Origin: Candidatus Heimdallarchaeota archaeon | GTDB lineage: Archaea > Asgardarchaeota > Heimdallarchaeia > Heimdallarchaeales > Heimdallarchaeaceae | Reading direction: 5' to 3' | Length of the DNA: 27,101 bases | Assembly: GCA_018238545.1 (NCBI GenBank) | Contig: JABCTC010000045.1 | Location: 1-27,101, forward strand | Shown here: positions 26,262-27,101 of the stretch, piece by piece | How positions within the stretch are numbered: position 1 is the stretch's first letter | Layout of the letters: every line of letters begins with the position of its first letter | The notes under the pieces: model-generated | Told to the model about the DNA's origin: nothing | What the model saw: only the letters and a program-made list of their open reading frames with translations | Database searches by the model: none | Made by a program: the position numbers and the translations under genes

Positions 26262-26429
26262 GTGACAAGAGCATCAGCTGAGGATGGAGATGTTGACACA
26301 GAAAAATGTATTCAGTGCATTGAATGTATAGATGTATGCCAAACATCTGCAATTAATGCTTCATACAGATTTAATAAATATTTCAAAGAATATATAACAG
26401 TACAAAAAACTGATGAGTTCTCTCAGTAA
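26262..26429 (+). pseudogene. 4Fe-4S ferredoxin-type fragment (55 codons; below the ORF-track cutoff)
   Basis: GTG start: VTRASAEDGDVDTEKCIQCIECIDVCQTSAINASY...; CxxCxxCxxxC with Q replacing the usual P. Confidence 0.6.
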
Positions 26430-26554: not shown

Positions 26555-26860
26555 GTGAAAAATTTGGCTAAAACTAATACAATTGGAACAATTATGGTGA
26601 GTGTTTTTATAACACTATTGCTTGTTGGAGTAGGAGGTTATTTTGGTCTTCCAGCTCTCTTCCCTAATTTGAATGAAGATTTAACGGTTGAAGGAGATAT
26701 ATTGCAGACAAAATACAATGAGTGGGAAACAGCCGCTTCTGTTTTTTGGACTGACAACATTTATGAAAAAATGCCTGATACAGAGCTAAATATAACTACA
26801 AATGGCGATTCTAAATTAATTGTCTCATTTGAAGGAACATTTATGCTACGCACGTTATGA
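26555..26860 (+). pseudogene. N-terminally anchored extracellular protein, apparently truncated by the terminal element
   Basis: GGTGA SD then TTG 26564. TM helix, then beta-strand-like sequence. The stop TGA (26858-26860) falls just inside the GC-rich segment. Confidence 0.6.
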
Positions 26861-27101
26861 AACTTGGTCAAACTTGCCAGAGGCGGTCTAACCGTCGTTT
26901 AAGTGGGTCCCCTCACGTGCGTTGAGGGGAAGAATCATGAGGATCATGATTGGGGAAGGAATGAAGGGAGTGCGCATTTACTCCGACAACATTTCCTGCC
27001 ATTGCGCTTCGTGCTGTATGGTTCAAACTTTATTAACTGAGGGACAAGTGTTCAAACACTTGCGAACCATAAATATGGCGAGTTTTCGCCAAGCACTACC
27101 C
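26854..27101 (+). mobile_element. 5' part of a GC-rich, hairpin-dense element (candidate structured ncRNA / non-autonomous IS)
   Basis: 120/251 G+C over 26851-27101. Stems: GGCGGT/ACCGTC (26882-96), TCCCCTCA/TGAGGGGA (26908-30), AATCATGA/TCATGATT (26933-51), GGAGT/ACTCC (26967-84), TATGGTTC/GAACCATA (27017-71) enclosing CAAGTGT/ACACTTG, and TGGCGA/TCGCCA (27076-91). G-U pairs favour the + strand. Confidence 0.6.

Follow-up and report, generated by a model that had tools for sequence, protein, structure and literature searches.

The window, that is, the whole 27,101-nt stretch of DNA analysed here, is an entire contig (C37) of a Heimdallarchaeia genome, and it ends inside a repeat that interrupts a host gene (Table 1). 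Regarding this gene, its product had no Pfam match, and its family (~190-230 aa, with a hydrophobic N-terminus) occurs in 9 of the 23 genomes of the genus (L031-L041), sometimes as neighbouring paralogues. Between a phosphotransferase gene and the interrupted gene there is a plus-strand frame of 55 aa (26262-26429) with a CxxCxxCxxxC iron-sulfur (ferredoxin-like) motif, possibly a gene remnant.

Table 1. Features at the right-hand end of the window (window coordinates)
Feature	Position	Strand	Basis or remark
Interrupted host gene, 5' half	26555-26850	+	uncharacterised Heimdall protein, ~194 aa, with a stretch of hydrophobic residues at the N-terminus
Predicted guide, AGCAUAAAUG..., the flank read after the scaffold	26828-26847	-	prediction modelled on the omega-RNA layout of IS607 elements (PMC10711439)
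Predicted ~250-nt omega-RNA scaffold of the ~400-bp non-autonomous IS607 element	26848-27101	-	folding, short-copy alignment
Shared trinucleotide, ACG on the plus strand, CGT in element sense; contains the recombination core	26848-26850	-	both ends and target; once in the empty site
Pseudoknot 3' strand, ACGUGCGU, with which the omega-RNA scaffold ends; core conserved at 26849-26854	26848-26855	-	alignments of copies and ends
Subterminal imperfect inverted repeat/repeated motif, AAACTTGGTCAAACTTGCCAGA	26860-26881	.	resembles a motif near the left end
Stem-loop; the pseudoknot 5' strand is its loop, which reads ACGCACG(U) in element sense (26915-26922)	26908-26930	-	covariation

The first 88 bases of the repeat are present as 27 right-end copies in this genome. 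All copies begin with ACGCACGT or ACACACGT and are preceded by unrelated flanks; over 147 ends, taken from this genome and from related ones, no conservation was seen at flank positions -1 to -8. Of the 60 genomes searched, 23 contain the end sequence, all of them in the same family. Complete copies are of two kinds: long ones of 2.1-2.8 kb, whose genes lie on the strand opposite to the plus strand of the window, and short, gene-less ones of about 250-400 bp, several size classes of which occur across the genus. In the full copies, of 2.7 kb, tnpB is downstream of tnpA (a 647-aa ORF in one of them), and the 200-aa TnpA of the C71 copy passes the NCBIfam IS607 model NF033518 (171.8 bits, cutoff 110) and has the Pfam MerR and Resolvase domains. 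The copy in the window is a gene-less IS607 derivative of ~400 bp on the minus strand, with both ends retained; lacking TnpA, it is non-autonomous. Some other copies of the genome are altered in other ways: the one on C51 (L008:3049-3381) is a 333-bp deletion derivative in which the left end and the start of tnpA are joined directly to the loop, with the loss of one hairpin arm, the one on C4 (L012, G000:C4:58119-60918) has a frameshifted tnpB and no tnpA, and the one on C102 (L013, G000:C102:49320-50270) is a 951-bp form with an internal deletion and half of tnpB left.

As for the ends, they have the subterminal imperfect inverted repeat and the short repeated motifs of IS607 elements (AAACTTGGTCAAACTTGCCAGA compared with AAATCTTATTCAATCTTGCCAGA). 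IS607 TnpA acts on double-stranded ends via repeated motifs (PMC6188088), and by analogy the copy of the motif within the window is likely a TnpA binding site. The GG core dinucleotide of classic members is absent, the core lying in YGT; most IS607 TnpBs tested have AGGAG motifs, and a GG core is not universal in the family (PMC11061315).

Of the six unpaired left ends compared, only that on contig C33 continues the interrupted gene, the 3' half of which lies behind it. Joining C37 to C33 gives a frame of 194 aa. Its C-terminal half matches 11 homologues, and in the four of these that have both halves aligned the distance across the junction is the same to the residue. The link between the two contigs is thus a predicted one, based on gene continuity and not on a unique overlap (one base of the repeat differs). 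Because the C33 flank alone restores the host gene, the empty site was reconstructed as TTTATGCT-ACG-GTTGGG. Only ACG, three of the eight bases of the 8-mer at the element end, is common to the empty site and that end; there is no further duplication, and the core bases are common to the ends and the target, as in other IS607 elements. A host-gene homologue search for an empty allele from a close strain found none (best match ~39%).

The hairpin near this end had been noticed before the element was recognised, and its description was borne out on re-reading the sequence: the 8-mer ACGCACGT occupies 26848-26855; the arms of the 8-bp stem are TCCCCTCA (26908-26915) and TGAGGGGA (26923-26930); the 7-nt loop is CGTGCGT (26916-26922); and ACGTGCGT (26915-26922), once reverse-complemented, is identical to 26848-55. 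A survey of all perfect hairpins of the genome with at least 8 bp and loops of 7-10 nt (n = 389), in which the 8-nt complement was sought within 100 nt, found a partner for 23; 12 of these are copies of the IS607 element and the remaining 11 have AT-rich sequence, so that the present match stands out from a background of ~3%. The initial annotation placed the gene/element boundary across the 8-mer. The boundary does fall inside it, within its first three bases (ACG, 26848-50), and not in the middle; the cut proposed at 26853/26854 is no junction, since 26851-55 belong to the element.

The pairing between the loop and the end of the element covaries. In a set of 87 distinct ends, two-sided changes (e.g. 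C-G to U-A and G-C to A-U) were seen at five of the eight pairs between loop and end, giving 19 compensatory cells, a number reached in 0 of 500 shuffles and opposed to at most 2 cells in slid controls; the shuffle figure is not a probability, the ends being kin, and the changes are nonetheless spread over five separate positions. The outermost two pairs frequently fail to form, which limits the pseudoknot core to 6 bp (26849-54 with 26916-21). Distant relatives (~30-43% TnpB identity) keep the pairing as CGCAUAC/GUAUGCG or CGCAUG/CAUGUG. An internal pseudoknot of an element that starts at 26848 had been offered as the alternative to a target-specifying loop, and it is this alternative that the unrelated flanks and the compensatory changes support. 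The same pseudoknot, in which an apical loop pairs with bases next to the guide, is known in ISXfa1, where activity fell on mutation of the loop and was restored in part by a compensatory change (PMC10711439), and in ISFba1 (PMC11061315); the IS607 TnpBs of both require it for activity.

In some copies the helix or its surroundings differ. The copy L007:677-774 (G000:C43) has its loop inverted in an unchanged stem (ACGCACG instead of CGTGCGT), and this inverted loop cannot pair with the end; either a template-switch inversion or an assembly error would account for it. In L153, L157, L160, L161, L165, and L167, mini-elements from two related genomes, an extra small hairpin is found just 3' of the pseudoknot stem-loop, and the pseudoknot is unchanged.

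Omega-RNAs usually overlap the end of tnpB, and in the full-length elements the stem-loop overlaps the last tnpB codons (FPSTHVRG). The scaffold is conserved and ends sharply at a variable guide, and the 254 nt of the element that lie in the window give a good minus-strand fold (z -4.4); in an alignment of 11 short copies, the upstream helices have compensatory changes in seven pairs. A TATA box, TTTATATA, is conserved on the minus strand of nearly all mini-elements and points to the right end; in the present copy it lies ~18-25 bp past the end of the window, and the left end ~145 bp past it. Against full-length elements, a profile of the mini-element interior had matches in the promoter region alone, which is upstream of tnpB, and none in the coding 3' end. 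The predicted guide matches this site alone in the genome. Rfam searches of the window at gathering level and of a full copy at E 10 gave no meaningful match, and no model fits the scaffold. Regarding the strand, promoter and gene orientation already indicate the minus one; non-Watson-Crick pairs of the core are of the G-U type 13 times if read on the minus strand and 6 times on the plus strand, a bias that may be taken as a modest vote for a minus-strand RNA, the copies being kin and not independent. The pseudoknot most likely acts on the minus strand. A role for the plus strand was considered and discarded, as the apparent plus-strand hairpin GGCGGTCTAACCGTC varies among copies without compensation; an integron attC (GTCTAAC ... 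GTT) was likewise discarded, with no closing site and IS607 ends on the element. Two distant relatives, L194:3240-3400 and L195:3430-3560, end beside tRNA-like sequence: L195 adjoins a tRNA-Cys gene, and the post-scaffold bases of L194, TCCCAAACCAGGG, recur in a downstream tRNA-like stretch that had no ARAGORN call.

As for TnpB, the tnpB product has 635-647 aa (~645 aa in full copies) and falls below HMM cutoffs (NF040570, E 3e-7). A PDB sequence search gave a weak Cas12f match alone (E 0.07); the structure model (mean pLDDT 84) matches Cas12f and ISFba1 TnpB structures with E values from 1e-9 to 5e-8. The RuvC site is D-E-H: the RuvC-I Asp is retained in the 119 homologues where the motif matched, the RuvC-II Glu is invariant in the alignment, and the RuvC-III position is His in 111 of the 111 homologues where that motif matched. 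This Asp-to-His rearrangement of RuvC-III is already catalogued, for instance in the TnpB clade RIIIr-4 (PMC10691335); compared by features and not by tree, the two share a family-wide conserved His at the third catalytic position and differ in the C4 zinc finger, kept in this family and absent from RIIIr-4. Because the third residue is His, DNA cleavage is not assured; the protein may cut empty sites or may only bind them.

The initial annotation suggested that the loop may specify the target or cleavage site. In its general form, this explanation holds that the loop, as RNA or single-stranded DNA, pairs with the insertion site in the manner of EBS/IBS, bridge-RNA, or IS200/IS605 guides, and the copies speak against it: their flanks are all unrelated, and the target holds only three of the eight bases, ACG, its bases 4-5 (GT) being mismatched to the loop. 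Of the covariation between loop and flank that had been proposed as a check, a trace appears: one loop base covaries with one target base. In fact, the third base of the end equals the target base in 54 of the 58 elements with both ends known, in several lineages: A-type ends are at ACAGT in 13/13 cases, and G-type ends have G there, mostly ACGGT, in 41/45, although the genome has 3.4 times as many ACAGT as ACGGT sites. The loop base opposite the third position of the end usually covaries with the target base, which is the point in favour of guidance. On the tnpB tree, whose groups are named from the end base and which leaves out the short elements, the end-base label changes six times and a single clade is rejected. 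Cases in which end and target match are the main A clade, L141/L151, L145, the C90 mini-element, and also L174, a G-type nested in the A clade. In L141 and L151, end and target are both A and the loop is unchanged (G-U pair): the target follows the DNA end, and loop and target covary because both track the terminal base of the element. By analogy with IS607, the matching fits a serine recombinase exchange over identical core bases (PMC6188088), which would account for the link; guidance by the loop is highly improbable, and equally so the specific idea that the loop or its RNA directly helps the serine transposase to choose its target base, that is, base-pair-guided IS607 targeting. If true, one RNA element would couple insertion site, TnpB target motif, and scaffold fold. 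The data suggest that the core is the YG of YGT, with the final T as a target base that is fixed and becomes part of the scaffold, as it does in ISXfa1; the core is placed to within YGT, AC and CR crossovers being both compatible with the data.

Two other explanations were considered. The helix might be a structure of the DNA itself, on which the transposase or replication depends: Watson-Crick covariation alone cannot separate RNA from single-stranded DNA, and the copy with the loop inverted in its stem suggests that the hairpin forms in DNA. This is very unlikely, as IS607 TnpA uses double-stranded ends through repeated motifs (PMC6188088), the helix lies where the reRNA pseudoknot is known to lie, variants of the G-U type are tolerated, and the promoter points into the region. 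It is extremely improbable that the element is a self-splicing intron (group II or group I/IStron) or a self-cleaving ribozyme with the loop marking the splice site. GTGCG resembles the start of a group II intron and some IS607 elements are IStrons (10.1101/2023.11.20.567912), but a full copy searched at E 10 gave no Rfam intron or ribozyme match, the long copies examined have no reverse transcriptase, the present element lies antisense to its host gene, and insertions counted roughly (37 antisense, 32 sense) have no orientation bias. Among specific candidates, a group II intron, with EBS1/IBS1 pairing, a domain V, and a reverse transcriptase, was rejected because the 8-mer is element and not target sequence, Rfam gave no match, and the long copies examined have no reverse transcriptase, and an IStron, whose group I intron would be sense to the host gene, on the missing intron match, the antisense position, and the lack of bias. 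IS200/IS605, with its guide tetranucleotides and Y1 HUH transposase, was rejected because the transposase of the full-length copies is a serine recombinase.

Overall, the window very probably ends in an IS607 mini-transposon in which the loop/end helix is the 3' pseudoknot of a TnpB omega-RNA, with TnpB acting in trans. In the proposed mechanism, a gene-less element of ~400 bp has inserted antisense into the host gene, keeping both ends, an archaeal TATA promoter, and the omega-RNA scaffold. A minus-strand RNA would start just past the end of the window and run through the right end into the flank; the hairpin loop would pair with the last 6-8 nt of the scaffold, and the resulting 3' pseudoknot would position the guide, namely the next ~20 nt of host DNA. 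TnpB, supplied in trans by the full-length copies, would bind this RNA. The serine transposase of those copies would move the element by recombination over a core inside the shared YGT, at ACYGT sites (element sense), leaving no duplication beyond the YGT overlap. TnpB and guide would then target the empty allele, where ACCGT is followed by AGCATAAATG...; the filled allele would be spared because GTGCGT precedes the same AGCATAAATG sequence there, and this targeting would thereby lead to retention of the element by repair.

Compared with the reference elements ISXfa1 (PMC10711439), ISFba1/RAGATH-18 (PMC11061315, PDB 8iaz), and CboIStron (10.1101/2023.11.20.567912), the Asgard elements have the same MerR-HTH serine transposase with tnpB, a right-end scaffold overlapping the 3' end of tnpB, the pseudoknot of an apical loop with guide-adjacent bases, and core bases common to ends and target without target-site duplication. 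The differences are the target, ACYGT here and G-rich there (TGGG, GGG, AGGAG); TnpB, which here has ~645 aa and D-E-H and there ~390 aa and D-E-D; the pseudoknot, 6-8 bp in place of the five nucleotides annotated in PMC10711439; the lack of a group I intron; and the gene-less state of the window copy. Standalone mobilised omega-RNAs acting in trans are known (summarised in PMC10691335), and here too gene-less mobile scaffold copies share the genome with effector-bearing ones; unlike those, the present copies keep both IS607 ends and a TATA promoter, and their activity in trans is a prediction.

In conclusion, the loop/end helix is very probably the already known guide-RNA pseudoknot of TnpB, an ancestor of Cas12, here in an IS607 element of an Asgard archaeon. 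Exact ends, the ACYGT target motif, the TATA promoter, and the predicted guide are now given for an Asgard family of large His-type TnpBs, which is therefore ready to assay. Of specialist interest, where its core base has switched naturally (CGT to TGT, and the reverse), the target site has switched with it and the RNA loop compensates, apparently afterwards; such switches document in nature the constraint that has been proposed, for IS607, to link the transposase core to the guide-RNA scaffold.
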